From Candidatus Melainabacteria bacterium (GTDB lineage Bacteria > Cyanobacteriota > Vampirovibrionia > 2-02-FULL-35-15): 64,000 bases of DNA. Below are positions 28,484-63,545 of the stretch, piece by piece. Numbering within the stretch: position 1 is the first letter of the stretch; every line of letters starts with the position of its first letter. The notes under the pieces are model-generated. The model saw only the letters and a program-made list of their open reading frames with translations. It ran no database searches and was not told where the DNA came from. The position numbers and the translations under genes were made by a program. The DNA lies in assembly GCA_023250205.1 (NCBI GenBank), contig JAHFBE010000002.1:4084-68083 (forward strand), read 5' to 3'.

Positions 28484-31090
28484 TTACTTACATTTAATCG
28501 TGTCATTTAGATCTATAGATCCATCATTTTTATTTGCACATGTAAGCTTTTTGCTATAGCAAGAAGCCAAATTGTCAGGATTTGAACATGTTGGGGTTAG
28601 TCCACGAGAACAAACTGCTTTATTGTTCTCTGTACATCTAGGAGTGCCTCTACTTGCCAGATCAAATGGACAGATGCATTTGCATGCTTGTTTATCTTCC
28701 CTGCAAGAATTAAAGCGTTTTCCTGATGGACAAAGTTTTTTAGTGTTGCAGGATGTGGTATCTTCGTCAGATGATCTGAGAATTCCAGTAGTGCAATATG
28801 CTGAGTTTACACTTAAAACTGTGCTACTTACATTCCTACATCCAGGACCAGATAAATCATTTACAAAACCTAATGATGAACCGCAGGTTGGGATGTTTGT
28901 GCTGCTGTTTGTGCAAAGAGGGGATCCAGTATTGCACATGATAGAGCCATTGGAACAGAATGGAGAAGCATTTGGAAGTGCGCAGAATTGAGAAATTTGA
29001 CCTGAACAATTTGGTCTTCCACGGCAGGGATCAATGACTACGCATACCTCACCATTTCTACATATAGCAGAACCACATTGAGCAGTTGAGCCACTGCTTG
29101 AGGATGAAGTAGCACATGGGTCAACTAAATAATTTATAAGAATACATTGATTGCCTAGGCAATTGTATTTTTGGTAAGTCATACCGCTTGGACATGTACC
29201 TATTGGACAATTGCTAGATACTGTACATGAAGGACCTCCACTTGAAGAACTTGTAGAACATGGAACAGGATTATTTGCAATGGCGAGAACACTGTTTTTT
29301 GCAGATTCAAGAGCAGTGAATACAGTATTTGAATCTGAGTTATTTATTCCAGGAACAGGTTGTAGCCCCTGGGTATTTGGATCATAATCATATTCTTGCC
29401 CAAGCCTAAGAGCTGTAAGCAGACCCTCATAATTAAAAACCTTTTCCAGATAAACATTAAAATTTGGATTAGTATCCAGGCAGATATTTATAGAAGAAAT
29501 AGAAGAGTAAAAGCTTTTAGATCTGTTTAAATCGTTCAGATAAAGTTTAACCTTAGCTATTTCTGCTTTTACAAGGTTTGGATCACTCAAGCCGTTTGGG
29601 TTTTGAAGAGTAGTTAGCCCAGAGACTGCACAGGAGAGAGTTTCCCCTGCAAATATTGCAGCTAAAAGATATTGTAAGTCACCAATTCTTATGTTTGCAA
29701 CAGTTATTTTTGTGTTGATTTCAGCAAGTCTGTCTACTATACTCATATTTACGGTGTATGGGCTTAGTGGAATTGGGACAATGGAGTATCTAATATTAGA
29801 AACAGGCTCTAGAGAGTCTGCATTCCCGGAGATATTTAATGTTCTGAATGATCCTTGGCATGGATTATTGATTGGAAATGAACAATCTATGTCACTTTGA
29901 AGTGCTTGAATTGTAAGCCTTTCCTGAGTTAGAACAGAGAACATATATGCAGAATTAGAAGCATTATTACCATAAACGCCAATACCTGAAACAGCTTGAA
30001 TCCCAGGAGTGCTTGGATCTGCATCAAATTCTTGTCCAAGATAAAGAGCACTTATTAACCCTTCAAGATTAACTATAAATCGTAGTTTAGTATTAAAAAA
30101 TATATTAGTAACTAAACAGAATTTAAAACTTGAGAAGCTTGTCCAGAAATCTCTTACATTTGTTATTAAACTTATATAAGAGTTTATTCCATTAATGGCA
30201 TTGGTAACTTCAGATAGGCTTGAATTATTAACCCCGGAAACTACACATGGTTTGGTTGTGTTGTTTATAATGGCATTTTTTAGATTTTCAAGAACAGTTT
30301 TTCTTTCATTTGCAATTGAAAGTTTTGTATTTGCTTCACTTACTCTGCTCTGAGGACTAAATGAGTTTGTGTATGGGGATAATGGAATTGGCACTAATGA
30401 ACAATTCCCTGGACAATTTAGTGTTCCACAGCCAGTCTGACAACCATTCTCATCTCTTGGAATATTTATATAAGTACAACTTGTTGGAGGAGCAGGGCAT
30501 GGTGGAGGATTACACTGACAACTTAACGTTCCACAGCCAGTCTGACAGCCATTCTCATCTCTTGGAATATTTATATAAGTGCAACCTGATGGTGGAGCAG
30601 GGCATGGCGGAGGGTTACATTGACAGCTCAATGTCCCACAGCCGGTTGGACAACCATTTATATCCTTTGGAATATTTATATAGGTACAGCCTGTTGGTGG
30701 AGCAGGGCATGATAAAATCGGACAAATAACTGGTTCGCAATATGCACATTGTGAGCAGGTTTGAGGAACAAGCTTATATCCAGGTTGGCATAGAGGTATT
30801 ACCTGAGGACATACAACACAATTACTCGTTGTACAAGTTACTGAACCGGGAAAAATAGAAAGAGAAGTTCGACAACTTGGCCCAAAAACATTACTACAAA
30901 TTACCTCGCCGCTTTTTCCTCCACTACAGATAGGAGTTCCACTAGGCACACAGGTTGGGATTCCGTTTGAACAGGAAACATCTGCTGAAAACACAGGGAT
31001 AAAGCCTTGAATTATAAAAACATAGAGGGTAGAAATTACTATTATTGATGACCTTAAATAATTAAGAATAAGATTCTTATTAAACTGCAT
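28484..31090 (-). CDS. Cys-rich secreted array protein (868 aa from the internal ATG; fifth in transcription order)
   Basis: The track ORF (28484..31324) overlaps the upstream gene. The ATG at 31090 has AGGAGGG 8 bp upstream and gives the signal-like N-terminus MQFNKNLILNYLRSSIIVISTLYVFIIQGFIPVFSA. The protein contains 3 repeats of 35 aa, 2 repeats of about 150 aa, and a C-terminal 18-Cys module. Confidence 0.7.
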   Translation of the reverse strand: MQFNKNLILNYLRSSIIVISTLYVFIIQGFIPVFSADVSCSNGIPTCVPSGTPICSGGKSGEVICSNVFGPSCRTSLSIFPGSVTCTTSNCVVCPQVIPLCQPGYKLVPQTCSQCAYCEPVICPILSCPAPPTGCTYINIPKDINGCPTGCGTLSCQCNPPPCPAPPSGCTYINIPRDENGCQTGCGTLSCQCNPPPCPAPPTSCTYINIPRDENGCQTGCGTLNCPGNCSLVPIPLSPYTNSFSPQSRVSEANTKLSIANERKTVLENLKNAIINNTTKPCVVSGVNNSSLSEVTNAINGINSYISLITNVRDFWTSFSSFKFCLVTNIFFNTKLRFIVNLEGLISALYLGQEFDADPSTPGIQAVSGIGVYGNNASNSAYMFSVLTQERLTIQALQSDIDCSFPINNPCQGSFRTLNISGNADSLEPVSNIRYSIVPIPLSPYTVNMSIVDRLAEINTKITVANIRIGDLQYLLAAIFAGETLSCAVSGLTTLQNPNGLSDPNLVKAEIAKVKLYLNDLNRSKSFYSSISSINICLDTNPNFNVYLEKVFNYEGLLTALRLGQEYDYDPNTQGLQPVPGINNSDSNTVFTALESAKNSVLAIANNPVPCSTSSSSGGPSCTVSSNCPIGTCPSGMTYQKYNCLGNQCILINYLVDPCATSSSSSGSTAQCGSAICRNGEVCVVIDPCRGRPNCSGQISQFCALPNASPFCSNGSIMCNTGSPLCTNSSTNIPTCGSSLGFVNDLSGPGCRNVSSTVLSVNSAYCTTGILRSSDEDTTSCNTKKLCPSGKRFNSCREDKQACKCICPFDLASRGTPRCTENNKAVCSRGLTPTCSNPDNLASCYSKKLTCANKNDGSIDLNDTIKCK
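30410..30711 (-). repeat. 3 x 105-bp coding tandem repeat
   Basis: Encodes CPAPP[TS][GS]CTYINIP[KR]D[IE]NGC[PQ]TGCGTL[SN]C(QCNPPP), three times. Confidence 0.8.
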
Positions 31091-31229
31091 ACTACACCCT
31101 CCTGTACTTGCAATAAATTTTTGTTGATATTTTTTAACTAATGGATTAGAACAAATGTTTCTTAAGAAAACTTTAAAGTAGACATTAAAATAAATTAATG
31201 TTGTGAAATTAATGGTTAGTACTAAATTT

Positions 31230-32909
31230 TTATTCTGGAGCACATCGCAAAAGTTGTGCCTTGCATTCAACAGCTCTCTCATCATCTCTACAACAATCTG
31301 GTGTTTTTTGAGGGTATCCTGCAATGCATTTTGGTTTATAGTCTGAGTTTGTACAATAGGCCTTTAGTCCATTTGAACACTTGACTTGTCCACTTACAGA
31401 GCAGAAAGCTTCTCCTTGTAAATTTGCGATTGGTTTAGCCTGCTTCCCTACTTCTGATTTCAAAGTAAATAGCCGTGATGAAATTCCAGCAGCAGTTGAT
31501 ACAACAAGTGTTGCATCTGTTTTTTGTGAGACTACGCTAAACGGAAAATCCAGAGTTATTCTCATTTCTGTTCCACCATTAAACACAGATACTTTTTTAA
31601 TTTCTGCTTTCAAAGTTGACGGGAAAATTGTGACATCAGTATTAGATGTTCCTTTTGGACTTTGAATAAAATTTTCTTCATTGTTGCTATCAGTGTATAA
31701 AAACGACATTCCAATAAAGTTATCTCCTCGTACACTTAAAATAACTCTGTTTTTGTTTTTGCTTATTGTGATTCTTGTAATTAATGGTTTTGATACATGC
31801 CTTCTATTTATTCCTTTTCCTTTAAAGACAGATATTTCAAATGGAATGACGATGTAAATAACTCCGTTTAGAGAAGTTCCATCACTAAGATTTAATCCGA
31901 ATCTTGTTTCTCCTCCTTTTATACTGTCGGGAATCGATAAACTTAAAATGTATCTTTCCGGTTGACCTGATATCGGTGTAACTATAAAAGGAACATCTTT
32001 GAATACAAATCCAGAACTGTCTTTTAAATCTACAGAAGCTATGGTTGTGCCAGGATTATCAGATGGAAGTTTAACTTCAAATGAAGGATTTGAACCTACG
32101 TATGCAAAGCCGGATTTATTAGCAAAATCATCAGTTACAAGAGGGAGTTCAACAACATCAGGTAGCTTCGGAGTTGAAACCACATCAATAGAAACTGTTT
32201 GAAATTCATTTCCTTCAGGAGTGACATCAGGAGAAGGGCATGATATTTTAAGTTCTGGTTTACAGGATAGTGAAATGCCATTAGATTTGCAACATTCGAT
32301 AACATTGGAAGGGTAACCAGGAAGACATTTTGGAGCGTATGTTTCATCAGAGCAAACCGCAAGTGCTCCACCAGAACAATAAACGAATTCATCCTTACAG
32401 TATGCCCCGATATCAACTGATCCTGAAGATGAGCTTGATGATGATGTGCTTGTAGAAACTTTGCAAATAGGAAGTTCTGATTTGCAGTCAAAAGATATTC
32501 CATTATTTTTACAACAGTCAATTACATTTTCAGGAAAGCCAGGCAAGCAAGTTGGTTTATATTCTGAATTACTGCATGTGGGGGTAAGACTTCCTGTGCA
32601 GGAAACAATTCCACCCGAACAAAACACTTTACTATTGTTTGTGGACGTTGTTGTTCCAGAACTTGAAGAAGAGCTGCTGCTTGATGAAGATGAGGAAGAA
32701 CTAGAGGAGATGCCTCCACCAGAAGAAGAGCTGGAACTTGATGAACTAGAGGATGAGCTGACTTGAAATAATAATTGTTGATCTGGATTTGAATTAGCAA
32801 ACGAGGATAAAGAAGAAGAGCTTTGTATTATTAAAGATGCTATAGATATACTAAGTACTAATAGAATCCTTGCTTTATTTGTCAGTGTTATATTGTTTTT
32901 ATAGAACAT
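31230..32909 (-). CDS. Cys-rich / poly-Ser secreted array protein (559 aa; fourth)
   Basis: Signal-like N-terminus and poly-Ser runs. Carries three copies of a ~52-aa 8-Cys module and a beta-rich region shared with the 714- and 889-aa paralogs. Confidence 0.7.
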   Translation of the reverse strand: MFYKNNITLTNKARILLVLSISIASLIIQSSSSLSSFANSNPDQQLLFQVSSSSSSSSSSSSSGGGISSSSSSSSSSSSSSSSSGTTTSTNNSKVFCSGGIVSCTGSLTPTCSNSEYKPTCLPGFPENVIDCCKNNGISFDCKSELPICKVSTSTSSSSSSSGSVDIGAYCKDEFVYCSGGALAVCSDETYAPKCLPGYPSNVIECCKSNGISLSCKPELKISCPSPDVTPEGNEFQTVSIDVVSTPKLPDVVELPLVTDDFANKSGFAYVGSNPSFEVKLPSDNPGTTIASVDLKDSSGFVFKDVPFIVTPISGQPERYILSLSIPDSIKGGETRFGLNLSDGTSLNGVIYIVIPFEISVFKGKGINRRHVSKPLITRITISKNKNRVILSVRGDNFIGMSFLYTDSNNEENFIQSPKGTSNTDVTIFPSTLKAEIKKVSVFNGGTEMRITLDFPFSVVSQKTDATLVVSTAAGISSRLFTLKSEVGKQAKPIANLQGEAFCSVSGQVKCSNGLKAYCTNSDYKPKCIAGYPQKTPDCCRDDERAVECKAQLLRCAPE

Positions 32910-33020
32910 AGTTTTTGCTTAAATAATGAGATTTAATAAAGTGTCCATATAGATTATGGCATAAGTACAAGGGTACTTTTCAAGGGTTTTATTTTTTTTT
33001 AAGATCTCTAAAAGCCACTA

Positions 33021-33042
33021 AAGGCGCTAAATTTAGCGCCTT
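33021..33042 (-). terminator. hairpin downstream of the 714-aa array gene
   Basis: AAGGCGCTAA-AT-TTAGCGCCTT. The flanking T-run is weak. Confidence 0.4.
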
Positions 33043-33090
33043 TAAGGAAATTAAGAATTTCTTAATTCTTGGTTAAATAGATCCCTTAAC

Positions 33091-35235
33091 TTAAGGTCCT
33101 ATATAAACTGACTTTGATACTGTACCAGAAGGAGTAGATATAACTATTACTATATCTGAACCTGTTGGTATTCCATCTTCCGAAGTGAGACTGAATTTCA
33201 GGAAATCTCCACTTGGGGAAACTGAAATATCATTTGCTTCTAAGTTAAGACTTGATGGATAAACAGTTACATTGGTATTTGGATCATTTGAAGGATTTAC
33301 TACAAACTTTGTACTGTTGTTTTCTTCAAAGAAGAATGCTTTACCGACGAAATACTTACCTTTTATAGTGAGGTCAATATTATCACTGCTAACATTTGAA
33401 TTAACTCTTAAAACAGTTGGTTCAAATACTGGCTTTGTGCTTCTCTTCTTGCCACTAAACACTTTAGCTTTTAGAGGAGAAACTATATAAATTACACCAG
33501 CATAAGAATTTCCGTTATTTGTAATTAATGCAAATCTTAATTCACCATTGCTTACTTTGTTTGGGATTGACAGACCAAGGATGTAAGTATCATTGCTTTC
33601 ATCAACTTTACTGAGAGTAAATGGAACTTTCTTATAAATACTTCCATTTGAGTCTTTTAAGTCAACAATATTTATTTGAGAATTTAAACCTGAAAGGTTA
33701 ATTTCAAATGATGGATTGGAACCAGAATATGCAACTCCAGCTACACCAACGTAGTTGTCTGGAATTAATGTTCCTTCGTTAGTATTTGGAAGATCTGGGC
33801 TAGAAATAATTTGTACTGAAACATCGTCAAATTCATTTCCAACTCCGTTAAATATTCTTGATCCACCGGATGAAGAGCTAGATGAAGATCCCCCACTACT
33901 TGAAGAAGAGGAAGAACCAGATGAACTGCTTCCACCAGAAGATGAGCTAGATGAAGATCCACCGCTGCTTGAAGAAGAGGAAGAACTAGATGAACTGCTT
34001 CCACCAGATGAAGAGCTTGAAGAAGAACCTCCACTACTTGAAGAAGAGGAAGAACTAGATGAACTGCTTCCACCAGAAGATGAGCTAGATGAAGATCCAC
34101 CACTGCTTGAAGAAGAGGAAGAACTAGATGAACTGCTTCCACCGGATGAAGAGCTAGATGAAGATCCACCACTGCTTGAAGAAGAGGAAGAACCAGATGA
34201 ACTGCTTGATGAGGTAATACAGTAAGGAATTCTCGCGGTGTGATCGGTATTATTATGGCAGTAAGGCGTACTGTTTAGACACAGGAATGATTCACTACCA
34301 GTACAGTCAGGGATTGTTCCTGAAGAGCAATAAGCTCCGCTTGTGCAGGAAGGTTGAATACAATTTGGAGTTCTTGCTGTTCCAATTGGAGAACCATTCA
34401 TAACACAATATGGCATAGAATCAACGCACTGATAAGTTTCACTAGCTGTACAGTCTGGAATAAATCCTCCATCACAGAAAGAACCATCTCCCATACAGGC
34501 TGGAGACACGCAGTTTGGTACTCTGCAAATTTGAGTACTACTATCAAAACAACAAGGAATATCGCCTACGCCACCAATACATTTAAATCTTTCAGGGAAA
34601 GTACAATTTGGAACAAGTCCTGGCATACAGAAACTTCCACTGCTTGAGCATGTAGGGATTATACAATTTGGAGTTCTTTTATCAAAAGTAGTTTTATTTA
34701 TACAAACAGGAGTTTCCATTGTTGTACCAATACAGTTGAAATCTTCATTAGAAGTACAATCTGGGATATAGCCGTTTGAGCAAAATGTACCAGTTGAACA
34801 AAGTGGTGTAGAACCAGAAGATGAACTTGTTGTAGAAGAAGAAGTTGTAGATGTAGAGGATGTTGTAGATGATGTAGAAGATATCTGAGAACAGATAAAA
34901 GTGATATCAGGTCTGCAATTAAGAGCGATGCCAGTGCCTCTACAACATTCAATTGGTTGAAAATTTGGATCGCCAAAGCATGTTGGTATGTAATTTGGAT
35001 CTGCACAGCTTACAGTTAAACCACTGCTACATTGAGCCATTCCGCTAACGCAGAATACACTGGTTTGAATTATCTGGGCATCGGCCTGAAATGAACTTTT
35101 TTCAAAGTCAGGAACTGAAAATAAATTTTTAAAATTGAAATTAAATGAAGATAAAACAGTTAAGTTAAGTACAATTATCAAAAATAAGCTAACTGTAAGC
35201 TTAAAAACTTGAGCTTTATTTGACGATCTATTCAT
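33091..35235 (-). CDS. Cys-rich / poly-Ser secreted array protein (714 aa; third)
   Basis: Signal-like N-terminus, one 8-Cys module, four ~50-aa Cys repeats and a ~119-aa Ser/Gly linker. The C-terminal ~250 aa are shared with the paralogs. Confidence 0.7.
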   Translation of the reverse strand: MNRSSNKAQVFKLTVSLFLIIVLNLTVLSSFNFNFKNLFSVPDFEKSSFQADAQIIQTSVFCVSGMAQCSSGLTVSCADPNYIPTCFGDPNFQPIECCRGTGIALNCRPDITFICSQISSTSSTTSSTSTTSSSTTSSSSGSTPLCSTGTFCSNGYIPDCTSNEDFNCIGTTMETPVCINKTTFDKRTPNCIIPTCSSSGSFCMPGLVPNCTFPERFKCIGGVGDIPCCFDSSTQICRVPNCVSPACMGDGSFCDGGFIPDCTASETYQCVDSMPYCVMNGSPIGTARTPNCIQPSCTSGAYCSSGTIPDCTGSESFLCLNSTPYCHNNTDHTARIPYCITSSSSSSGSSSSSSSGGSSSSSSSGGSSSSSSSSSSSSGGSSSSSSSGGSSSSSSSSSSSSGGSSSSSSSGGSSSSSSSSSSSSGGSSSSSSSGGSSSSGSSSSSSSGGSSSSSSSGGSRIFNGVGNEFDDVSVQIISSPDLPNTNEGTLIPDNYVGVAGVAYSGSNPSFEINLSGLNSQINIVDLKDSNGSIYKKVPFTLSKVDESNDTYILGLSIPNKVSNGELRFALITNNGNSYAGVIYIVSPLKAKVFSGKKRSTKPVFEPTVLRVNSNVSSDNIDLTIKGKYFVGKAFFFEENNSTKFVVNPSNDPNTNVTVYPSSLNLEANDISVSPSGDFLKFSLTSEDGIPTGSDIVIVISTPSGTVSKSVYIGP
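33859..34215 (-). repeat. about 5 x 69-bp coding tandem repeat (Ser/Gly linker)
   Basis: Encodes (GG S7 GG S12)n over roughly 119 aa. The DNA units are visibly near-identical. Confidence 0.8.
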
Positions 35236-45103: not shown

Positions 45104-46726
45104 ATGGCAACAGAGCAAACACAATTAAATCCTCAAAATGTCCAGAATGCAATGGCAAATCTTGGACAAAACAGAAGAATGGTTTTAATTGGTGCTGGTG
45201 TTATAACCGTTATTCTTACAATAGTTATTATAGTCTTTGCTTGGTCACACAGTCAGGATAAAGGGGCTCAAATTGAATTAGTTAAAAGAATTGATCAAGG
45301 CAGAGCATTTGAAGTTGTTTCAAAATTAAGATTAAGCAATATTGAAGCAAAAATAACTGATAGTGATTTACCAGGAAAGGTACATGTTCAAGTTTATCAA
45401 AAGGATTTTGATGGAGCTGCTCTTACATTAGCAAGAAGTGATTTACTGCAAGAAGATGGTTTTAATTTGTTTGATAAAAGCGATTGGGCTGCATCAGATT
45501 ATGATAAAAGAATAAAAATGATGAGAGCTGTCAATGGTGATCTTTCAAGAATTATTAGTAGAATGACAGGAATTAAATGGGCTACAGTCCGTGTAAATAT
45601 TCCTGAACCACAATTATTTAGTCAATATCAAGCTCCAACTACTGCAACTGTACAAATTGAGTTGCCAGATTCAGATTTAAAGTTAACAAGGACACAGGTA
45701 AGAAGTGTTTTAAATCTACTTGTTGGATATGTTCCTAACCTTCAAAAAAATAATATTTCAGTTATTGATACAAACGGGGAAACATACTCATCAGTTGAAA
45801 CAGAAGAAGTTGCAGCTAGTGAAATTATGGAAGAACAAGAAAGAGTAAATAAAGCAGTTCAAAAGAGAATTGAAGAGTATCTCCAACCATTGCTCGGTTC
45901 AAATGGATACATTGTAAGAGTAAGTTCAGAAATCAGCAGAAAGAAAATTGAAGAATCAGCTACTACCTTTGCTAATGGAGTAGTAGGTCAAGAACAAGTT
46001 GGTGATGAAAGATTAGGTGCAGGATCTTCAGAAGGTCAAACAGTTGGCCCTGCTGTTCCTGGCGCAGATGGCAGCAAGAGTTATGAAAGAACCAATAGAG
46101 TTACCCAAAGATATCCAAGCTTTAAACAAAAAACTGTTAGCACCCCACCAGGATCAATTTCAAAGATTTCAGTTGCAGTTGCTTTAAACAGTGATTTACT
46201 TCCTAAAATTTCAGTTAAACAGTTACGTGAAGGTATTGCAGCAATTACAAGTCCTAACACAACTGTTAGCGATATAAAAATTACTGTAGCAGAGTTTGCA
46301 ACACCAGGCGGAAAAATTTCTTCAATAAAGAAACCTTCTCAATCTTTTAGTATGCCAAGTATAGCTTCAGTTACTGACTTGTTTAAAGGTATGCCAAAAT
46401 GGGCTGGAATAGCAATAGCAGTATTTGGTTTCTTAATTGTAATTAATTCATTTAGAGGCCCAGCAAGACAGCCACAACAAGTACAAAGCACAGTATCTCA
46501 AATTAACCAATCAATGCAAAAGCAACTTCAGAGACCTGAAACACAAATGTTGAAAGCACAAACACAAACACAGGCTCAAGCACCAATTGCAGAACTTACT
46601 GCTCAGCAGCCAGACTTAACAGGGATTTTAACAGGGCTGAAAGAAGCTGCTGTTGAAAAACCCGAGTTTTTAGCAAGTAAGCTTCAAATCTGGTTAGAAG
46701 AAGGTTCACAAGCAAGCAGAGTTTAA
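45104..46726 (+). CDS. fliF: flagellar MS-ring protein FliF
   Basis: 540 aa. N-terminal TM segment, a YscJ/FliF-type ring-building region (WATVRVNIPEPQLF...ATVQIEL) and a second TM segment near the C-terminus. Confidence 0.85.
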   Translation: MATEQTQLNPQNVQNAMANLGQNRRMVLIGAGVITVILTIVIIVFAWSHSQDKGAQIELVKRIDQGRAFEVVSKLRLSNIEAKITDSDLPGKVHVQVYQKDFDGAALTLARSDLLQEDGFNLFDKSDWAASDYDKRIKMMRAVNGDLSRIISRMTGIKWATVRVNIPEPQLFSQYQAPTTATVQIELPDSDLKLTRTQVRSVLNLLVGYVPNLQKNNISVIDTNGETYSSVETEEVAASEIMEEQERVNKAVQKRIEEYLQPLLGSNGYIVRVSSEISRKKIEESATTFANGVVGQEQVGDERLGAGSSEGQTVGPAVPGADGSKSYERTNRVTQRYPSFKQKTVSTPPGSISKISVAVALNSDLLPKISVKQLREGIAAITSPNTTVSDIKITVAEFATPGGKISSIKKPSQSFSMPSIASVTDLFKGMPKWAGIAIAVFGFLIVINSFRGPARQPQQVQSTVSQINQSMQKQLQRPETQMLKAQTQTQAQAPIAELTAQQPDLTGILTGLKEAAVEKPEFLASKLQIWLEEGSQASRV

Positions 46727-47441: not shown

Positions 47442-48884
47442 ATGCTTATAAAAAAGAGAAAACTTGCAAGCATAAATGGTAACAAGGGTACTGCTAAGAT
47501 TTTGCAGCCAGAGCATGGTGAAGCTGCAAGGGCAATGCAAATTGAGATTCAAAAAGCAAAGGAAGAAGCAAGGCAAATTAAACATGAAGCTCAGCTTGTT
47601 TTAGCTGAATCAGAGAAAAAACTAAAAGAAGCAGAAACAAGAATAAGAGAAATAATTGTAGCTGCAAATCTTGAAGCTAAAAACATTAAAGAAAAGGTTT
47701 ATCAAGATACTTTAGCATCAGCAAATCAAGAAGCTGAATTAATTCGTGAACATGCAAAAATTCTCTTAAAACAACTTTTTAATGTGAAAAAAGAAGCACT
47801 AACACAGGCACATAATGAGATTATAAAAATAGCTTTGGATTTGGCTGAAAAAATCATTAGATATAAAGTATCAGTTGATCCAAATGTTCTACAAATACAG
47901 GTTGTTGAAGCGATTAAAAAAGCTACTGCTGATGCAGATAGAGTTCAGGTGTTTGTACATCCAAATGATTTAAAGGTTCTTGAGGAGAGTATTCCTGGTA
48001 TGGAAAAACTCTTTCCTTCAGGAGTGGATATAGTTGCTCTTGCAAATGACTCAGTTGATCCAGGGAGTTGCATGATTGAGACTAAATCTGGTCAACTGGA
48101 TGCGAGATTTTCCACACAGTTGCAGTCACTTACTGGTTTAACTGAACATCTGGAAGTTATTGAACCGCAGATTGAAATAAATGAAGAAATCCCTGTTGTT
48201 GAAGCAGCTGCAGAAAAATATGTCCCTATTCAGGAAGCTTCATTTGCAGAAGTTGAAGAAAACTTGCCACAATATATTATTCAAGATGAACAAAGGCAAG
48301 AACAAGAAGAGTTAACGGTTACTGAGAAAGAAGTATTAGAGAAAGAGCTTTTAAGTGATGAAGAACCTTTAATTCTTAATGAAGAGGATAATACTTTTCC
48401 ATTTATTTCAAATGAACAATTAATATCACCGACTACACCTCTTGAACTGGAAGATGAAGAATCGATTATCAAAGAAAATATAAATGAACCAGAGTTGATA
48501 GAAGAAACAAATATTCCTGAGGCAGTAATTAATAATATTGAACAAGAAATAACAGTTTCAGAAGAAGTTGTTCAAAGTGTTGAACCAGAGCAAGTTGAAC
48601 AGATTGAACAGAATAGTATTCAAATAGAAAATCAAGAACCAGTTCAGCAAAGAAAAAAGCTAAATGTTGGTCCTGTTCCAGAAAGAACAAGAGAAGAGGC
48701 TGAAGAACTGGATGAAGGTTTAGTCCTTGAATATGAAGAGGATTCTGAGGAAGAAAAGAAAGAAATTAAACCGACAAACATATTAAAACCAAAAAAAACT
48801 CAATCATCTGGAATTTCAGAGATTGCTTCAGAATTGGAAGAAAACCCTGAATGGAAAGATATTGTGGAAGAAGATGAGGAGTAA
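47442..48884 (+). CDS. fliH: flagellar assembly protein FliH with a long acidic C-terminal extension
   Basis: FliH/subunit-E-like coiled coil, then ALANDSVDPGSCMIETKSGQLDARFSTQLQSL. About 250 aa of Glu-rich sequence follow. Confidence 0.7.
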   Translation: MLIKKRKLASINGNKGTAKILQPEHGEAARAMQIEIQKAKEEARQIKHEAQLVLAESEKKLKEAETRIREIIVAANLEAKNIKEKVYQDTLASANQEAELIREHAKILLKQLFNVKKEALTQAHNEIIKIALDLAEKIIRYKVSVDPNVLQIQVVEAIKKATADADRVQVFVHPNDLKVLEESIPGMEKLFPSGVDIVALANDSVDPGSCMIETKSGQLDARFSTQLQSLTGLTEHLEVIEPQIEINEEIPVVEAAAEKYVPIQEASFAEVEENLPQYIIQDEQRQEQEELTVTEKEVLEKELLSDEEPLILNEEDNTFPFISNEQLISPTTPLELEDEESIIKENINEPELIEETNIPEAVINNIEQEITVSEEVVQSVEPEQVEQIEQNSIQIENQEPVQQRKKLNVGPVPERTREEAEELDEGLVLEYEEDSEEEKKEIKPTNILKPKKTQSSGISEIASELEENPEWKDIVEEDEE

Positions 48885-49326: not shown

Positions 49327-50259
49327 GTGATAAAAAAAATAAAAGTTCTAAATATTACTGGTTGGGGAAGAAGTGGAAGTACAATCCTTGGCAATGTTTT
49401 AGGAAGTTGTGAAGGGTTTTTCTTTGGTGGAGAAATTAGAAATATATGGAAACAGTCATTATTAAACAATAGATTGTGTGGATGTGGGGTTCCATTAAAA
49501 GAATGTTCTTTCTGGCAACAAGTTTTTGATAAAGCCTTTGGCGGGATTGATAAAGTTAATGCTGATGAAATTATTAAAAAACTAGAGCTTTCTTATTATT
49601 CAAGATTTGCTCCTGTGAAATTGTTACCTTGTGGAGAGAGATATTTTAAATCTAAAGCACTTTCTGTTCCTGAAATGGAGAAATTATTTATTGAAATTCA
49701 TGAAGCCTCAAACTCTAGGGTAATTGTGGATACTACTAAATCTCCAATATATGGTTATTTACTTTCTCTTATGGGTAATCTGGATGTCTATGTTATTCAT
49801 TTAATACGAGATCCACGAGGAATAGCTTATTCCAGGAAAAAGAAAATGCTTCAGCCAGATAAAGACCAGAAGGTTTACATTGAAAGATTTAGCTCTTTTG
49901 ATAGTTCTTTAAAATGGGATGTTAGAAATATATTTTCTGAACTTTTATGGAAAAAAAATAGAAATAAATATTTAATGATTAGATATGAAGATTTTATTGC
50001 AAAGCCAAAGGAAACTATAAGCAGTATTTTAAACTTTATCTCAGAGTCTGATGCCTCTATGCCATTTGCCTCTGATAATGAAGTGGAGCTTTCTATAAAC
50101 CACTCTGTATGGGGGAATCCTAGCAGATTTAATATGGGGAAGATAGAGCTTAAACTAGACAATGAGTGGAAAACTAAACTAACCGGATTTGATCGATTTG
50201 TTTCAACAACATGTACTCTTCCATTACTTTCTCGGTATGGTTATAGGATAAAGAGTTAA
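49327..50259 (+). CDS. sulfotransferase-family protein (paralog 2)
   Basis: Motifs ITGWGRSGSTILG, CGCGVPLKECSFW and HLIRDPRGIAYSR. Collinear with 5434..6390. Confidence 0.7.
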   Translation: MIKKIKVLNITGWGRSGSTILGNVLGSCEGFFFGGEIRNIWKQSLLNNRLCGCGVPLKECSFWQQVFDKAFGGIDKVNADEIIKKLELSYYSRFAPVKLLPCGERYFKSKALSVPEMEKLFIEIHEASNSRVIVDTTKSPIYGYLLSLMGNLDVYVIHLIRDPRGIAYSRKKKMLQPDKDQKVYIERFSSFDSSLKWDVRNIFSELLWKKNRNKYLMIRYEDFIAKPKETISSILNFISESDASMPFASDNEVELSINHSVWGNPSRFNMGKIELKLDNEWKTKLTGFDRFVSTTCTLPLLSRYGYRIKS

Positions 50260-56716: not shown

Positions 56717-57424
56717 TTACTCTATGGACACACCCTGAAAAATTGATATTACCTCTGTAAGATTATTTACCAGATAATCTGGTTTTAATATTTCTAATTG
56801 TTCTTTAGATCTAATTCCTCTTGATATGCCTATAACTTTTCCATATTTTGCTAGTCTGCCTGCATGAATGTCTGTTTCAGTATCTCCGATAATCCAAGTG
56901 TCTTGTGCAGATAAATCGAGTTTATTTAATGCACTAACTAATAAGATTTGTTTTTCCTGAATATCATTTGTTATTTTATGATTATCGTTTAAACAAAAAA
57001 GATGATCATCATCTAGGTACTTGCTTAATTTGAATTGATTAATTGCATGTAATAACTGCTTTTGCCTTCTTAAAGTTACTATAAAGAAAGTGATTTTTTT
57101 TGATTTTAAGTATTCAAAGGTTTTTAGAATATCATCAAATAGCCTATCTAGCTCTAATAAATCAGTCCTAAAAGATAGCTCTTTCCTTGCCTCTGCAGAG
57201 CTTTTTGAGTCATTTGTCCCTAATCCGCTCATCAAACTTATTTCAAAATCAGTTATTCTGTTTCGTTTTAGATCCCAAAAGACCTCTTTTGTTAAAATTT
57301 GATTTTTATTAGAGTTAGTACCTTTTAAACTTCCAAGATATGCACGATAATATCTCTCAGAAACATCTATGATAGGTCCATCAAAATCAAAACATAAATT
57401 CATTTTACTTTTTTTTAAGTTCAA
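56717..57424 (-). CDS. HAD-superfamily hydrolase
   Basis: Motif I FDFDGPIID and motif IV GDTETDIHAG. Confidence 0.75.
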   Translation of the reverse strand: MNLKKSKMNLCFDFDGPIIDVSERYYRAYLGSLKGTNSNKNQILTKEVFWDLKRNRITDFEISLMSGLGTNDSKSSAEARKELSFRTDLLELDRLFDDILKTFEYLKSKKITFFIVTLRRQKQLLHAINQFKLSKYLDDDHLFCLNDNHKITNDIQEKQILLVSALNKLDLSAQDTWIIGDTETDIHAGRLAKYGKVIGISRGIRSKEQLEILKPDYLVNNLTEVISIFQGVSIE

Positions 57425-58364
57425 GACAAGCTTGAACTATCCTCTGTCAATTTATTCCACAGGATTGGATTTGGTGGGTAAACCACTCAAATCCTTTAGT
57501 TGCAAGTCTATTTTAATTTCATTTCTCATTTTACTTTGCTTATTACATCTATTATTTAATCATATACCAGCGTATGCAGAAAATAAAAATGTTACCAATA
57601 TACTAATACCCAAAATTCAAACCAAATTAAAACAATATCCTGGTCTTTTTTGCGGTGTTTATATTAAGCCAAGCTGGACAGATAACTATATAAATATAAA
57701 CGGTGATAGTGTGTTTCCTGCCGCAAGCCTGATTAAGATTCCAATAGCTGTTATCCTTCTTCAAAAAATTGATAAAAAAGAAATTTCCTGGGACAAAGTT
57801 CTTACTTTGAAACATTATCATTATGCTTCTGGTGCTGGGTATCTCCGTACAAGAAAAATTGGGACAAAGCTTACTCTTAGAGAAGCATTCAGATTAATGC
57901 TTACTATAAGTGACAACACTGCAACAAATATGATTATTGATGTTCTAGGTGGAGTAACTGCTACAAATAAACAAATATCAAAACTTAAATTAAAAAACAC
58001 AAAACTTGTTAGCTGGCTTGGAGATTTTAAAGGGACAAATAAGACCTGTCCTTGTGATTTAGCTAATTTACTTGAAAGATCTTTAGAAGGAGAGCTTTTA
58101 CTTAAAAGCTCAAGAAAAGTTTTAAAAAGTACATTATTAGATGTTCAAAATAAATCTCTAATAAAAAATGGGCTTGGCAGGTATACAAGATTTGCGCATA
58201 AGACAGGAACAATTGGCATTTGTGTGGGTGATGCAGGAATTATTTACTTTCCGTTTGGAAAAAAAGTGGCCATTTCAATCATTGTAAAGAGACCATTTAA
58301 TAGTTTAAATGGTCAAAAGATTATTAGAGAAATAAGTAGATTGATTTATGAATATTTGGGATGA
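57369..58364 (+). CDS. class A beta-lactamase-related serine hydrolase; the start is probably downstream, near the GTG at ~57473
   Basis: SxxK (ASLIKIP), SDN (TISDNTATN) and KTG (HKTGT) motifs. The ORF's 5' end overlaps the divergent HAD gene start. Confidence 0.6.
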   Translation: MIGPSKSKHKFILLFFKFKTSLNYPLSIYSTGLDLVGKPLKSFSCKSILISFLILLCLLHLLFNHIPAYAENKNVTNILIPKIQTKLKQYPGLFCGVYIKPSWTDNYININGDSVFPAASLIKIPIAVILLQKIDKKEISWDKVLTLKHYHYASGAGYLRTRKIGTKLTLREAFRLMLTISDNTATNMIIDVLGGVTATNKQISKLKLKNTKLVSWLGDFKGTNKTCPCDLANLLERSLEGELLLKSSRKVLKSTLLDVQNKSLIKNGLGRYTRFAHKTGTIGICVGDAGIIYFPFGKKVAISIIVKRPFNSLNGQKIIREISRLIYEYLG

Positions 58365-58397: not shown

Positions 58398-61300
58398 TTA
58401 GTAAACACCAGCGCCAGATTCACAGCTACCATCAATAAAATCAATTCTATCGAAGATACGATCGTTTACAGTAGGATTGTCGTTAGATTTGACATAGCCA
58501 TTAGCAAAATCTTTTAAAGTTCCTTCAAAGAGAGAGTTGTTCCCTCCAAGCCAAAATTCATGTTCAAGTCCACCTTCTTTAAACCAAGCATTGTTAATAG
58601 GTTGTTGCCCAGCCATTACTTGTTCAGGTCTTATACTGCGACCATGACCATGGAAGTAGAATGCTAATTCAATTTTTGCATTTGGATTATTAGTACGAAG
58701 CGTTCTTGCTGTGGTTAGGGTAGCATTTATCTTTGTTTGAAGCGCCATAACATCTGGCAAAGTGTCTCCACTAACATCGTAAATAGCGACATTGTTTGCA
58801 GGATAATTTAACCTGTTTCTAAGAATATGCTCTATATAAGCAACAGTTTTCTCTTTAATAAATCTTTCTGCTTCTGGATCAGGACCCTGTATTATACCCA
58901 GTGCTTGTGCTATATCAGAAATAAAGGAAAAAAGAGGTGGCTGATTGTTTTCTCCCTGGACTGTTCCCTTAATAATTATTGCAAATCTATACACGGGTGA
59001 TGCTGGATTTGGTGGAACTCCCCAGGAAGGGCTAGAGGGTATTTGTATAGGCATAGGGGGTTGAAATGCTTTTCCAAGGTGTGCAACCCAGTTATTCAAT
59101 GTATTTTGAAATGCATCACTTAAATTCCCACTGGAATTAATTAAGCGTGAAAACAAAAATAATGGGAATGGATCTACAAAATTTGCATGATAATAGGGCT
59201 TATATGTTCGATTGCTTGGGGGACCATTTTGAACAGAAGCCACCATAAACTCATAGTTTAATGAACCTGCATTTCTTCTGCCAAATACTTCATTAACAGG
59301 ATCAATAGGACCATCTATACCCGCAATATCAGGCCAAAAGTTTGTTCCCATTGTAATAGCATTTTCATAATCTGTTAATGCCTGAGCTGGTGATATCATT
59401 GCAGCCAATAAGTCTGCTCTATTGTTATAACGAACTCTTACCCAGTTGCCATTACCACCAGCTTGGGGAGGTACAGGAGGAAACATTAATGTTAGATCTC
59501 TTGGGAACCACCCGGCATATGCAAATAAATGTTGCCAAGTAGCAGCATAATATTTTGTAGTAGCTTGAGGCCAGCGTTTTAGTAAGCTATCTCGTTCATT
59601 AATAGTTAAAGATATGTACCCTTGCATGTTGTATGTTTCACGATTCTGAGCATCAGTAATAGGACTAAGAACAGTATTAATAATCTCAAGCCAGGGTTCA
59701 AGTTCAGGAGGAACAGGCTGATAGTGAATAGCCTGATCTCTAGCTTCTAATACAACGCAGTTATTTAATTCTTCAGGAGGCAAACTGCATAAACTACTAC
59801 CTGCTGAAGGATCGCCGTCATAATATGCATATATTAAGTCTTTTACAAAAGAAGAACATTGTGCACAATTACTACTTAAGTCAAATACATCTATATGCCT
59901 AGTAATATTAGGTGGTTCAACTTGTGGTGAACTTAAATAAGGACAGCTTGCAGAAAGTGTTTCAATGGTAGCTCCTCTATTAAAAATACTTTCTTCAACG
60001 CCATCATCTAATTTAACTGTCAGATCTGCTGGTAGTAAACAAGAATTGTTAGATTCAAATCCTAATGCGGCTTGAAGCGGACTAATTGGAGCATCATCAG
60101 GGACATCATCTGGTTCATGAATACACTGCGGTGTTCCTGAACCATCATCAAAGCATTTAAATCCCTCGGGACAATTAATTTCTTCACAGACATTAGTTGT
60201 TGCTGTGTAAACATTAACAGGATTATCATTTGTGTTTAATGTAGGAGTTAGTTCTTGCGTAGGTTCAGTCTCTGCTAAGGATGAAGCAGTAGGTTCAGGA
60301 GTAGTTTCGCTATTGTCTGGTTGAAGATTTTCTGTATTAGTAGTTGGTTGTATCTCTGGAATAATGGTTGAATTAGGAGTTTCTGCTGGTTGTTCGGTAG
60401 TTGTTGTTGTTGAAGCAGGTTCAATAGGATTATTTTCAACGGGAGGAGTAACAGTTGTATCAGTTGATAAGGTTGTTTCAGTACTTGTTTCAATTGTAGG
60501 GAGTGACTCAGGGGTTATAGAAGGAGCAGGTGTTATTGTAGGTTCTGTAGGTTGTTCAGTAGTAAGATCTATGGCAGATAGAACACATTCGCTATTTATA
60601 CAGATCAATCCTTGTAGACAATCAGCATTAGTAACGCAAGATGCATTTCCAGTCCCTGGTGAAGAACCTAAGCTATCACTGAGTCCTGGTTGCGTTTCAG
60701 TAGTGGTTGTAGATTGAGTTTCGGTGGTGGTAATAGTTCCAGGAGAAGGTTCAGGAGCAAGTGTTGGTTCAGTTGATGGTGAATGTGTAGATCCGGTTCC
60801 GGGCAATATTGCTGTTTTAGTTTGAAATATGGCGTAATCATTATAAAAATTTTTAAAAGCAGGTTCTGCTATAGGTACTACTATTACATCAAAATTTGTT
60901 TTGTCTTTAAGCCAATCTTGCAATTTAGGTAAGATGTCTTCTAACATTGGTTTTTGAGAAAGAGCAATTCTCCTGTCAAAGTTTAGAGAGTTAATAAATG
61001 TATGAAATGAAATAACCGCATTATTACCAAACTGATTGACTAATCTTTCACCTAGCGGGCTAAGGTATTTACCATCAAAACTCTGTACTGGTTTCTTTGC
61101 GGTATGGCTATTTCCATAATATATAAGAGCTTTAAAATTAGTTGTTGCTTTAGAAATGTTTATAACATTTTCTTCTATTGTGTCTTCTCTCAACTTCCTT
61201 GGGATAAATTTATATAAATCATCATCAAGAGCAACAACATCAGTATCTATACAATTAACTTTTAATCCTGCCTTTTTTGCTGCAATAACTAATGGGATGA

Positions 61301-63545
61301 AATCCACATAGATTTTTCCTAATAACTGGGGTTTAATTTCTTCTTCTGATCTGGTGAAATCTGTATTATCAATAATAGTTTGCCTCTTTTTCGGTTGCTC
61401 AATTAGAAGGTGTGTAAGACCTTCATTCTTTAAACTTGCAAATAATGTAGCTAGCTTGTTTCTAAAAGTATCAAGTTCAGCAATGTGATACTCACCTATC
61501 AACAATACTTTTACTTCTGGTTTTTTAACCTGCTCTATAAGTATGTCCTTTAAAGGCTTAGCAGTTGCTTTTATATGATCTATTATTTCTTTAAATATTG
61601 CATCTTTTTCTTCATCTGTAAAATCTTTAAATGGTTTTTGTTCAACATAAAGTGTGGACCTAGAACTTGTATAAAACTCACCTTCTTCTTCTGTTCCAAT
61701 AAGACAATCACTACTGTCAAGTGGACATATAGCAAACAAGTCTTCAGTCGGCTCAGGAGTAGTTTCGCTATTGTCTGGTTGAAGATTTTCTGTATTAGTA
61801 GTTGGTTGTATCTCTGGAATAATGGTTGAATTAGGAGTTTCTGCTGGTTGTTCGGTAGTTGTTGTTGTTGAAGCAGGTTCAATAGGATTATTTTCAACGG
61901 GAGGAGTAACAGTTGTATCAGTTGATAAGGTTGTTTCAGTACTTGTTTCAATTGTAGGGAGTGACTCAGGGGTTATAGAAGGAGCAGGTGTTATTGTAGG
62001 TTCTGTAGGTTGTTCAGTAGTAAGATCTATGGCAGATAGAACACATTCGCTATTTATACAGATCAATCCTTGTAGACAATCAGCATTAGTAACGCAAGAT
62101 GCATTTCCAGTCCCTGGTGAAGAACCTAAGCTATCACTGAGTCCTGGTTGGGTTTCAGTAGTCAAAGCAGTAGAGGTAGATTCCTGAGATATGGTCTTGG
62201 TATTTTCTGTTGATTGAGTATTTGAAATAGGTTCAGTAGTAGTAGGTGTTGGAGGAGGAAGTGTCTCACACAGACAAGTATCACCGATACTTTGACAGGT
62301 TTGTCCTTCTGGACAACTACCTTCACTGCACTGCGGAAAAGCAGTTTGATCACAATCAGTAAAAGGTGCAGGACGAATCAACCCATCTTCATTGCATAGT
62401 CCATAATCAACAACTCTTCTATCAGTTCCTGTGCAATACTCTCTTGGCATTAAGGAGATTACTCTGACTGTCTCACTGCCACTAGGAATATCTAAATTAG
62501 TAAAATCGTCAGGGAAACCAATCTGAGAAGAAGGAGGATAAGGAAGAGGAGAATAATTGTATTCACAGCACACTCGTATGGGAGGAGAAAGCACGGCAGT
62601 AAAATCATTTGTAATTTCTTGTGTGGGTATTATTTCAGCTGTTGTTGTTGATTCAGAAGTTATAGGACTTTCGGTAGTTATAGTTGATTCTGGGAGTGTA
62701 TCTGAGTTAGTAGAAGTAGATCTTGTTGGTTCATAGATAAAAGCTTCTCCTGCAATACCGGGATTAATAATTTGAATTTCCTCAAGCTGAGACTGAGAAG
62801 ATTCAGTAGTAGTAGTTTCAGTATTTGGAATATTAGTAGAACCAGAATCATCAAGAGGAAGATAGCAAGTGTTTCCAATATACTCTCCAATCTCAGAATC
62901 ATTGGGGTTGAAGGAACATGTACACCTGACGCCTTCTGGAAAGGTTACTCCAGGACAACGACAAAACCTATCTTCTTCTATAGAGCCAGTACATTGAACT
63001 ACTTCATGTGATTGCCGAATTAAATCTAATACTAAACAACTACCTCTACAGACACTCCTATCTGTGGGGTTTTGTATAGGATAAATCACATCGCAACAGG
63101 TGTTACATCTAGCTCGGTTTGGAATATTAAGACACAAAGCACCACATGCGGAATTAGGAACAACTCGACCAGATCTATTTCTTCTTCCAGTCCCATTTAT
63201 ACAATCTTCTTCTGTTTCCATAAATCTTTCTGTGGGTACACTCATTTCCATGATGTCTATATTGGTACTGGTAAATTCGCCAGTGAGATCAGTAGAAAGA
63301 TTATATCCAGGATACTCACAGCAGATTAGTGGTGGTGGTGGCGGAACAATGAATGCTGTTGGATTTAGTTTGGAATCATCATCAGTAGTAGTAGATTCTA
63401 AAAATATGTCTGAATTAGTAGAAACTTCAGTGCATAACTTAATTTGATCCTTTGCATGGGCCGGATAACAATTCATAAACAGTGAATTCTCAGTGCAAAG
63501 TGAGAAAAAAAGGATAAATATAAATCCGAATAAGAATTTTTTCAT
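58398..63545 (-). CDS. 1715-aa secreted modular protein: Cys-rich N-terminal modules, Thr/Pro/Glu linkers, a central GExH domain and a large C-terminal domain
   Basis: Signal-like MKKFLFGFIFILFFSLC and two CCEY-containing Cys modules. A block of about 136 aa (ASCVTNADCLQGLICINSECV + T/P/E linker) is duplicated. VLLIGEYH lies between the two copies. Confidence 0.75.
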   Translation of the reverse strand: MKKFLFGFIFILFFSLCTENSLFMNCYPAHAKDQIKLCTEVSTNSDIFLESTTTDDDSKLNPTAFIVPPPPPLICCEYPGYNLSTDLTGEFTSTNIDIMEMSVPTERFMETEEDCINGTGRRNRSGRVVPNSACGALCLNIPNRARCNTCCDVIYPIQNPTDRSVCRGSCLVLDLIRQSHEVVQCTGSIEEDRFCRCPGVTFPEGVRCTCSFNPNDSEIGEYIGNTCYLPLDDSGSTNIPNTETTTTESSQSQLEEIQIINPGIAGEAFIYEPTRSTSTNSDTLPESTITTESPITSESTTTAEIIPTQEITNDFTAVLSPPIRVCCEYNYSPLPYPPSSQIGFPDDFTNLDIPSGSETVRVISLMPREYCTGTDRRVVDYGLCNEDGLIRPAPFTDCDQTAFPQCSEGSCPEGQTCQSIGDTCLCETLPPPTPTTTEPISNTQSTENTKTISQESTSTALTTETQPGLSDSLGSSPGTGNASCVTNADCLQGLICINSECVLSAIDLTTEQPTEPTITPAPSITPESLPTIETSTETTLSTDTTVTPPVENNPIEPASTTTTTEQPAETPNSTIIPEIQPTTNTENLQPDNSETTPEPTEDLFAICPLDSSDCLIGTEEEGEFYTSSRSTLYVEQKPFKDFTDEEKDAIFKEIIDHIKATAKPLKDILIEQVKKPEVKVLLIGEYHIAELDTFRNKLATLFASLKNEGLTHLLIEQPKKRQTIIDNTDFTRSEEEIKPQLLGKIYVDFIPLVIAAKKAGLKVNCIDTDVVALDDDLYKFIPRKLREDTIEENVINISKATTNFKALIYYGNSHTAKKPVQSFDGKYLSPLGERLVNQFGNNAVISFHTFINSLNFDRRIALSQKPMLEDILPKLQDWLKDKTNFDVIVVPIAEPAFKNFYNDYAIFQTKTAILPGTGSTHSPSTEPTLAPEPSPGTITTTETQSTTTTETQPGLSDSLGSSPGTGNASCVTNADCLQGLICINSECVLSAIDLTTEQPTEPTITPAPSITPESLPTIETSTETTLSTDTTVTPPVENNPIEPASTTTTTEQPAETPNSTIIPEIQPTTNTENLQPDNSETTPEPTASSLAETEPTQELTPTLNTNDNPVNVYTATTNVCEEINCPEGFKCFDDGSGTPQCIHEPDDVPDDAPISPLQAALGFESNNSCLLPADLTVKLDDGVEESIFNRGATIETLSASCPYLSSPQVEPPNITRHIDVFDLSSNCAQCSSFVKDLIYAYYDGDPSAGSSLCSLPPEELNNCVVLEARDQAIHYQPVPPELEPWLEIINTVLSPITDAQNRETYNMQGYISLTINERDSLLKRWPQATTKYYAATWQHLFAYAGWFPRDLTLMFPPVPPQAGGNGNWVRVRYNNRADLLAAMISPAQALTDYENAITMGTNFWPDIAGIDGPIDPVNEVFGRRNAGSLNYEFMVASVQNGPPSNRTYKPYYHANFVDPFPLFLFSRLINSSGNLSDAFQNTLNNWVAHLGKAFQPPMPIQIPSSPSWGVPPNPASPVYRFAIIIKGTVQGENNQPPLFSFISDIAQALGIIQGPDPEAERFIKEKTVAYIEHILRNRLNYPANNVAIYDVSGDTLPDVMALQTKINATLTTARTLRTNNPNAKIELAFYFHGHGRSIRPEQVMAGQQPINNAWFKEGGLEHEFWLGGNNSLFEGTLKDFANGYVKSNDNPTVNDRIFDRIDFIDGSCESGAGVY
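60295..60704 (-). repeat. 410-bp direct repeat, copy 1 (inside the 1715-aa gene)
   Basis: Identical to 61753-62162 except for one mismatch (60693 C versus 62151 G). The shadow ORFs 60364..60717 and 61822..62187 translate identically for about 108 aa. Confidence 0.9.
61753..62162 (-). repeat. 410-bp direct repeat, copy 2
   Basis: The offset from copy 1 is exactly 1458 bp, which is 486 codons. Confidence 0.9.

Follow-up and report, generated by a model that had tools for sequence, protein, structure and literature searches.

Near-identical in-frame repeats flank a predicted TIKI-superfamily hydrolase domain in a large modular gene of a melainabacterium

In our analysis of a 64,000-nucleotide stretch of the Candidatus Melainabacteria bacterium assembly GCA_023250205.1 (contig JAHFBE010000002.1, positions 4,084 to 68,083; hereafter the window), we found that a single minus-strand open reading frame (ORF) of 1715 codons (58398-63545) carries two almost identical copies of a 410-bp direct repeat, one on either side of a predicted hydrolase domain. 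We think it likely that the pair originated in a recent in-frame duplication, or conversion, of a spacer module of the encoded protein, and that the instability it would bring is a by-product of module accretion and not an evolved reversible switch. Base-by-base comparison of 60295-60704 with 61753-62162 gave 409 identical nucleotides out of 410 at an offset of 1458 bp (486 codons), and a repeat search of the window recovered the same pair. Using blastn, exactly two copies of the 410-bp unit were found in the whole window (100% and 99.76%). The sole mismatch (60693 versus 62151) falls on the third position of a Thr codon (ACC in codon 465, ACG in codon 951) and is hence synonymous, and the perfectly identical core is 398 nt long. 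A match of 410 nt at 99.8% is far beyond chance. In the protein, the identity extends over 139 residues (462-600 and 948-1086), with Glu-Pro-Thr at or just past the downstream DNA edge of both copies, where two of the three codons differ synonymously (GAG CCG ACT versus GAA CCT ACT). The repeat coordinates and the single mismatch given in the initial annotation are confirmed, and the offset is a multiple of three, as it had stated, with both copies in frame within one ORF.

The edges of the repeat are sharp. In alignments of the flanks against shuffled sequences, similarity drops abruptly to background at both edges: between 139 and 362 of 500 shuffles equalled or exceeded the observed score for the downstream flanks, which is background level, and 19 to 79 of 500 did so for the upstream flanks, a marginal result explained by the Thr-rich codon composition that the flanks share. 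The perfect 398-nt core together with these abrupt edges is indicative of one very recent copying event, in agreement with the earlier proposal that the near-100% identity implies either a very recent duplication or gene conversion.

Each copy encodes a short Ser/Gly/Thr lead, a four-cysteine motif (SCVTNADCLQGLICINSECV), and a 98-residue linker with 28 Thr, 17 Pro, and 13 Glu, which bears out the previous description of a Cys motif followed by a Thr/Pro/Glu linker. The knot SCVTNADCLQGLICINSECV yielded sub-threshold family matches only (Dumpy DPY, E=0.0066; Dickkopf_N, E=0.24). Units of a knot followed by a Pro/Thr linker are present at residues ~406-430 (the end of the second N-terminal Cys-rich domain), 483-600, 969-1086, and 1120-1150, and P0004, a homologue of the C-terminal domain of the protein, has an analogous knot (CTLDADCPPDSACSDSQCV) at the same place, before that domain. 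As knots recur elsewhere in the protein and in P0004, the repeat is one of the standard spacer modules of this protein. At the protein level its copies most likely act only as flexible tethers.

The piece bracketed by the two copies is 1048 bp long and encodes 347 residues (601-947). By direct search, residues 601-947 gave no significant Pfam, NCBIfam, or PDB-sequence match, and the same held for the full protein and its other pieces. When 1.84 billion representative proteins were searched exhaustively with HMMER, 69 remote homologues came up (E 1e-17 to 1e-3, ~30% identity), most of which are stand-alone proteins of 260-330 residues and none of which carries the 410-bp repeat. We aligned the window domain with 39 homologues (40 sequences) and found near-invariant columns at G84, E85, H87, E116, R186, G211, H214, and D303, all of which are kept in the window domain (G684, E685, H687, E716, R786, G811, H814, and D903). 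The motifs G684-E685-Y-H687, E716, and G811-N-S-H814, that is, the GxxH pair and the two His and two Glu (2His/2Glu) typical of the superfamily, fall in these columns. Among the 40 alignment members, 27 matched the Pfam family Cofac_haem_bdg (best 8e-12), which is described as 'Haem-binding uptake, Tiki superfamily, ChaN', 12 matched Erythro_esteras, and 3 matched TraB_PrgY_gumN; the family models thereby suggest superfamily membership of the bracketed domain transitively, through its aligned homologues. Searched against PDB, the family profile matched RRSP (E 7e-9 to 9e-12) and HopBA1 (E 1.4e-8).

An AlphaFold2 (AF2) model of residues 601-925 built from this alignment reached a predicted local distance difference test score (pLDDT) of 84.6 and a predicted template modelling (TM) score of 0.83. 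The modelled piece is structured at its residues ~40-315 (~640-915 of the protein), with weak ends (pLDDT below 50 for the first ~33 and the last ~8 residues), and both the model and Foldseek indicate an alpha/beta fold with a parallel beta-sheet core and flanking helices. The top 20 Foldseek matches all belong to the superfamily (HopBA1, RRSP, BcR135/136, EreC, the C-terminal region of PMT, and ChaN), with E-values of 9e-8 to 7.5e-4 and query-normalised TM-scores of 0.34-0.50. Thus, the earlier statement that the repeat brackets one domain can be made more specific, the discrete domain being identified as a TIKI-superfamily hydrolase. Judging from the sequence and the model, the bracketed unit is probably a complete and catalytically competent domain of this superfamily, and its nearest solved relatives are HopBA1 and the catalytic lobe of RRSP.

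The window motifs align with LIGEVH, ..GLE, and YGKAH of RRSP, whose 2His/2Glu motif (Glu-3900, His-3902, Glu-3930, and His-4030) is common to TIKI-family enzymes and essential for its activity, the cleavage of Ras (PMC6254334). The spacing is also similar: from E-x-H to the second Glu it is +31 in the window domain and +30 in RRSP, and from the second Glu to the second His it is +98 and +100, respectively. Nevertheless, the matches to RRSP span only residues ~290-442 of the 478-residue construct, which correspond to the C2 lobe, and orthology to RRSP was rejected because only this catalytic lobe matches. The window domain lacks the N lobe (the four-helix bundle for membrane localisation) and the C1 subdomain, both of which are required for RRSP activity, and in the AF2 model it comprises ~276 residues with a disordered lead and no additional lobe. 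Unlike RRSP and HopBA1, it lies within a modular protein with a probable Sec signal peptide and not in a MARTX toxin or a type III effector. A foreign origin of the domain was rejected as well, because the third-position GC content (GC3) and the codon usage are host-like in all segments of the gene, the bracketed domain included.

Two of the remote homologues deserve a separate mention. In the TIKI-like homologue P0006 (L089, 8001-8876), Trp takes the place of the family's Gly at many positions, and translation of this locus does not reproduce the protein, which suggests that the lineage reads UGA as Gly and that the protein was translated under a different code. Bro-N, KilA-N, and DNA-methylase genes surround another TIKI-like homologue, the stand-alone P0010 (L086/L087), whose context is thus phage-like or that of a mobile element.

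With the spacer denoted A and the hydrolase domain B, the layout of the gene is A-B-A. A single simple tandem duplication was rejected as a one-step origin, as it would give A-B-A-B. The A-B-A layout therefore leaves a dispersed copy of the spacer, the conversion of an older spacer, or a Campbell-type insertion of an A-B circle by single crossover, the last of which is possible. Insertion of a transposon with target-site duplication was also rejected, since 410 bp is far too long for such a duplication, there is no transposase, and the insert is an in-frame protein domain. The lack of significant residual homology in the flanks favours a fresh copy, whereas the presence of spacers at every domain boundary and the synonymous-only differences beside the core hint at the conversion of a pre-existing spacer.

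Several points weigh against the account that we prefer, a recent duplication or conversion. The arrangement needs a special event, as it is not the product of one simple tandem duplication. Synonymous-only stretches border the 398-nt core on both sides (11 nt before the mismatch on one side, and the GAG CCG ACT/GAA CCT ACT codons downstream on the other), which hints at an older paralogy of the two spacers. The flank test does not separate a fresh duplication from gene conversion. Furthermore, so unstable a structure could have persisted through selection.

Taken together, we propose that a spacer module (the four-cysteine mini-knot and its Thr/Pro/Glu linker of ~100 residues) would have been recently duplicated in frame, or homogenised by conversion, in such a way that it ended up on both sides of the hydrolase domain. 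The identical copies would then lay a 1458-bp unit, consisting of the hydrolase domain and one spacer, open to recombination that depends on RecA or proceeds by replication slippage, and the expected outcome, going by the geometry and by experimental analogues, would be either an in-frame deletion product of 1229 residues or a tandem amplification. The gene would grow by module accretion, with the instability most likely a side effect.

The expected rates can be gauged from laboratory substrates. In Deinococcus radiodurans, direct repeats of 438 bp separated by a 1,479-bp spacer showed a median deletion frequency of 6.5e-4, which a single mismatch lowered ~4.8-fold, and the deletion was spontaneous and partly RecA-independent; values more than 10-fold lower are stated there for a Helicobacter pylori substrate with 358-bp repeats and an 850-bp spacer (Ithurbide et al., 2015; PMC4627823). 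The D. radiodurans construct has nearly the same geometry as the pair described here (410-bp repeats, 1,048-bp spacer), although it is a laboratory construct in another phylum and its rates may not be those of this organism. Overall, comparable engineered repeats delete at roughly 1e-5 to 1e-3. The clean in-frame removal or duplication of 486 codons predicted in the initial annotation follows from the geometry and agrees with these experiments.

Its further suggestion of a ready-made on/off switch found no support. Deletion leaves a single copy of the repeat and the loss is irreversible within a lineage, and therefore 'on/off switch' is the wrong term, a heritable loss or amplification being the realistic outcome. 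In addition, the recurrence of Cys knot and linker spacers in the protein makes the duplication or homogenisation of a spacer an ordinary by-product of modular evolution. No second allele was found in the protein or contig collections searched. Exact look-ups of the 1715-residue protein and of a neighbouring protein found nothing, and the full-length homologue search returned the query only, missing even the relatives of the C-terminal domain, evidently because it was swamped by low-complexity words. Scans of genome contigs and metagenome contigs with the full protein found no relative, and a metagenome scan with the alignment of the C-terminal family found only contigs of members already known. 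A co-existing deleted allele would be invisible in the contig, because it would create no new junctions: with X and Y as the outer flanks, X-A and A-Y are already there.

It is conceivable, but in our view unlikely, that the gene is a contingency or cassette locus, in which the identical spacers are maintained because recombination between them allows part of the population to lose or multiply the hydrolase domain of a protein that is exposed. The geometry fits such a locus (410 bp of identity, 1458 bp equal to 486 codons, and a clean product of 1229 residues), events should be frequent enough to be of consequence in populations (PMC4627823), and there are precedents for in-frame repeat-mediated variants in cagY (PMC2194252) and in the 'periscope' proteins (PMC8201768). 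The bracketed unit would also be a complete and probably active enzyme domain, as predicted from sequence and model, and several further repeat-rich orphan genes are present on the same contig. Known systems, however, rely on arrays of many repeats, while this gene has two copies only, between which deletion is a one-way event, and no collection searched held an alternative allele. There are no relatives with the repeat either, and so its maintenance over time cannot be shown. We would be more reluctant still to expect a maintained recombination cassette, in which cells without the hydrolase domain, or with several copies of it, occur at high frequency.

There is also a small chance that the structure is an assembly artefact, in which the copy number of A-B is wrong or strain variants are joined by a chimeric path over a collapsed 398-bp node. 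The window has the look of a metagenome-assembled contig and a single contig is on record; moreover, 398 nt are perfectly identical and the sole mismatch lies 12 nt from the edge, where a k-mer still reaches the unique flank, a pattern to be expected if the path through the graph used the same collapsed node two times. Against this, both ends of the unique segment run into the repeat, so the data must contain the A-B-A adjacency whichever path was taken, and the copy number is therefore the main assembly risk. The ORF remains open across both junctions for 1715 codons, and the bracketed segment, a complete domain, has the codon usage of the host. Other near-identical internal repeats have been resolved on the contig, and because units of 69 nt with up to 98% identity are kept separate, the assembler could handle repeats. 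Functional constraint, whereby selection and repeated conversion would keep the spacers the same at the protein level as paired binding or glycosylation modules, seems very improbable, for although the sole difference is synonymous and the amino-acid identity reaches three codons past the DNA identity via synonymous changes, constraint on a low-complexity Thr/Pro/Glu linker would not fix all third positions over 398 nt, one synonymous difference out of one has no statistical weight, and 'EPT' is a common tripeptide in these linkers.

The protein as a whole (Table 1) consists of two Cys-rich domains, the hydrolase domain, and a conserved C-terminal domain, in that order, with spacers between them. 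As for its description as a surface protein in the initial annotation, a signal-peptide-like sequence is visible in the translation, no anchor, lipobox, or sorting motif was recognised by eye in the 1715-residue protein, and a surface location may only be surmised from the sequence. Cys-rich domain 1 and the start of domain 2 are 31% identical over 100 residues (E=3e-4) and both begin with ..CCEY.., a weak similarity which is indicative of an older, diverged internal duplication. Neither domain matched any family, and no homologue of the N-terminal 409 residues was found.

The C-terminal domain has three relatives in BLASTP searches (P0002, P0003, and P0004; 673-765 residues, 46-68% identical), all of which bear a signal peptide and terminate in the invariant GHGRS ... 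SCESGAG[VI]Y, while the Cys-rich module at the N-terminus differs in each; the family thus has four members among the protein collections searched. As these modules differ from member to member, the N-terminal part evolves through the swapping or accretion of modules. None of the three relatives has either the repeat or the TIKI domain, and a JGI contig added a second copy of one already known member and nothing more. By sequence, close relatives were found for the C-terminal domain only, and the hydrolase domain has only remote ones. The C-terminal domain gave no Pfam, NCBIfam, or PDB match, nor a PDB match by family profile, and its AF2 model (pLDDT 36.6) is unusable. GHGRS and SCESGAG come after hydrophobic strands, with a beta-alpha-beta pattern in this low-confidence model, and the protein terminates 7 residues after the Cys of SCESGAG. 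GHGRS...SCESGAG may resemble the His/Cys dyad of clan CD peptidases, which we offer only as a lead.

Table 1. Features of the repeat-bearing gene, in window coordinates.
Feature	Position	Strand	Residues and remarks
ORF of 1715 residues containing both repeat copies	58398..63545	-	multi-domain, lineage-specific, predicted secreted
Probable Sec signal peptide	63453..63545	-	1-31; MKK, hydrophobic stretch, AHA|KD; read from translation
Cys-rich domain 1	62841..63332	-	72-235; starts ..LICCEYPGY..
Cys-rich domain 2	62256..62573	-	325-430; starts VCCEYNY.., ends in four-cysteine knot CSEGSCPEGQTC..
Repeat copy nearer the N-terminus	61753..62162	-	462-598 (protein identity to 600); S/G/T-rich lead, knot, linker
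Knot SCVTNADCLQGLICINSECV in the N-terminal-side copy	62040-62099	-	
Whole unique segment between copies	60705..61752	-	~599-947; ICPLDSSDC lead, TIKI-like domain, Thr/Pro/Ser tail
Folded core of bracketed domain	60801..61628	-	640-915; GE685xH687, E716, R786, GxxH814
Repeat copy nearer the C-terminus	60295..60704	-	948-1084 (protein identity to 1086)
Knot in the C-terminal-side copy	60582-60641	-	
Diverged four-cysteine knot CEEINCPEGFKCFDDGSGTPQCI	60120..60188	-	directly precedes C-terminal domain (1120-1150 unit)
Conserved C-terminal domain	58401..60092	-	1152-1715 (~565 residues); ends GHGRS ... SCESGAG[VI]Y, invariant

The big gene is located between a beta-lactamase-family gene (57369-58364, plus strand) and an IF-2B/MtnA-family gene (from 63697, plus strand). 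The neighbours in the window are bacterial and include PurL, a transglutaminase-like protein, an M23 peptidase, a MerR-like regulator, a HAD hydrolase, the beta-lactamase-family protein, FliF, and FliH. The window PurL shares 80% identity with the PurL of a 'Candidatus Melainabacteria' metagenome-assembled genome (MAG; L001) and 73% with its counterpart in a 'Candidatus Caenarcanales' MAG (L002), and the remaining PurL matches, ~50% identical, are from cyanobacteria. By sequence the host is a Caenarcaniphilales-like melainabacterium. In both L001 (3750-5844) and L002 (2326-4329), the beta-lactamase-family gene adjoins the IF-2B/MtnA-family gene and the big gene is absent. Because the syntenic site lacks it in both of these nearest genomes, the 1715-residue gene is lineage-specific. 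The HAD gene (56717-57424) is present in L002 and has no match in L001. The flagellar genes FliF (45104-46726) and FliH-like (47442-48884), followed by a sulfotransferase-family gene (49327-50259), fit a motile melainabacterium.

We also observed other repeats in the window. A cluster of large ORFs on the minus strand (28484-40048; 946, 559, 714, 889, and 466 residues), whose sole Pfam match is Laminin_G_3 in the 889-residue ORF, contains tandem repeats of 69-nt units in 5-6 copies at 33836-34275 (up to 98% identical), of 192-nt units in 3 copies at 39177-39790, and of 105-nt units in 3 copies at 30412-30726. The 714- and 889-residue ORFs also share segments that are 79-84% identical (34344-34643/37506-37805 and 34840-35081/37993-38234). 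An 84-nt element (..GTCATTGCGAGCCGA..GGCGTGGCAATCC..) occurs twice, at 24847-24930 and 25034-25117 (187 bp apart, 81% identical), within or beside an ORF with a staphylococcal-nuclease domain (24445-25278, minus strand), and it could be a small dispersed repeat or an element like a miniature inverted-repeat transposable element.

If the structure is real, modular protein evolution has been caught here at a very early stage, with one synonymous change separating the copies, and the hydrolase domain is an in-frame unit that can be deleted or amplified. Cysteine knots of a eukaryote-like kind and mucin-like linkers occur in this protein together with a TIKI-type hydrolase domain, which is probably active and is related to catalytic lobes found in bacterial effectors, and with a C-terminal domain whose family has only about four known members, all in a poorly studied lineage of non-photosynthetic cyanobacteria. 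Length variants in a population, if found, would extend repeat-mediated variation from the length of stalks to whole catalytic modules; without them, the pair would be a recent intragenic duplication of an ordinary kind.

Variable-length surface proteins with near-identical tandem repeats, such as the alpha C protein of group B streptococci and the M proteins, offer the first comparison. Near-identical in-frame DNA repeats are present in the window gene as well, not as an array of several units but as exactly two, non-adjacent copies. The cagY gene of H. pylori, the product of which is exported or exposed, similarly contains direct DNA repeats (Aras et al., 2003; PMC2194252), although there the repeats are very many, in two repeat regions, and variants have been observed within hosts, while the window gene has two copies only, which flank a unique enzymatic domain. 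The 'periscope' proteins are similar in that DNA-identical units encode stalk or spacer modules, for which a change of length by homologous recombination has been proposed (Whelan et al., 2021; PMC8201768). Their units, however, form head-to-tail arrays of folded repeat domains whose copy number tunes the length of the stalk, whereas in the dispersed A-B-A arrangement recombination would remove or multiply a catalytic domain. In essence, intragenic repeats are already known from modular exported proteins, and the pair adds a further case, in an unusual arrangement that is dispersed and brackets a domain; were the pair in fact a maintained cassette, it would provide domain-level heritable variation of an enzyme module, unlike the stalk-length or on/off variation seen elsewhere in bacteria.

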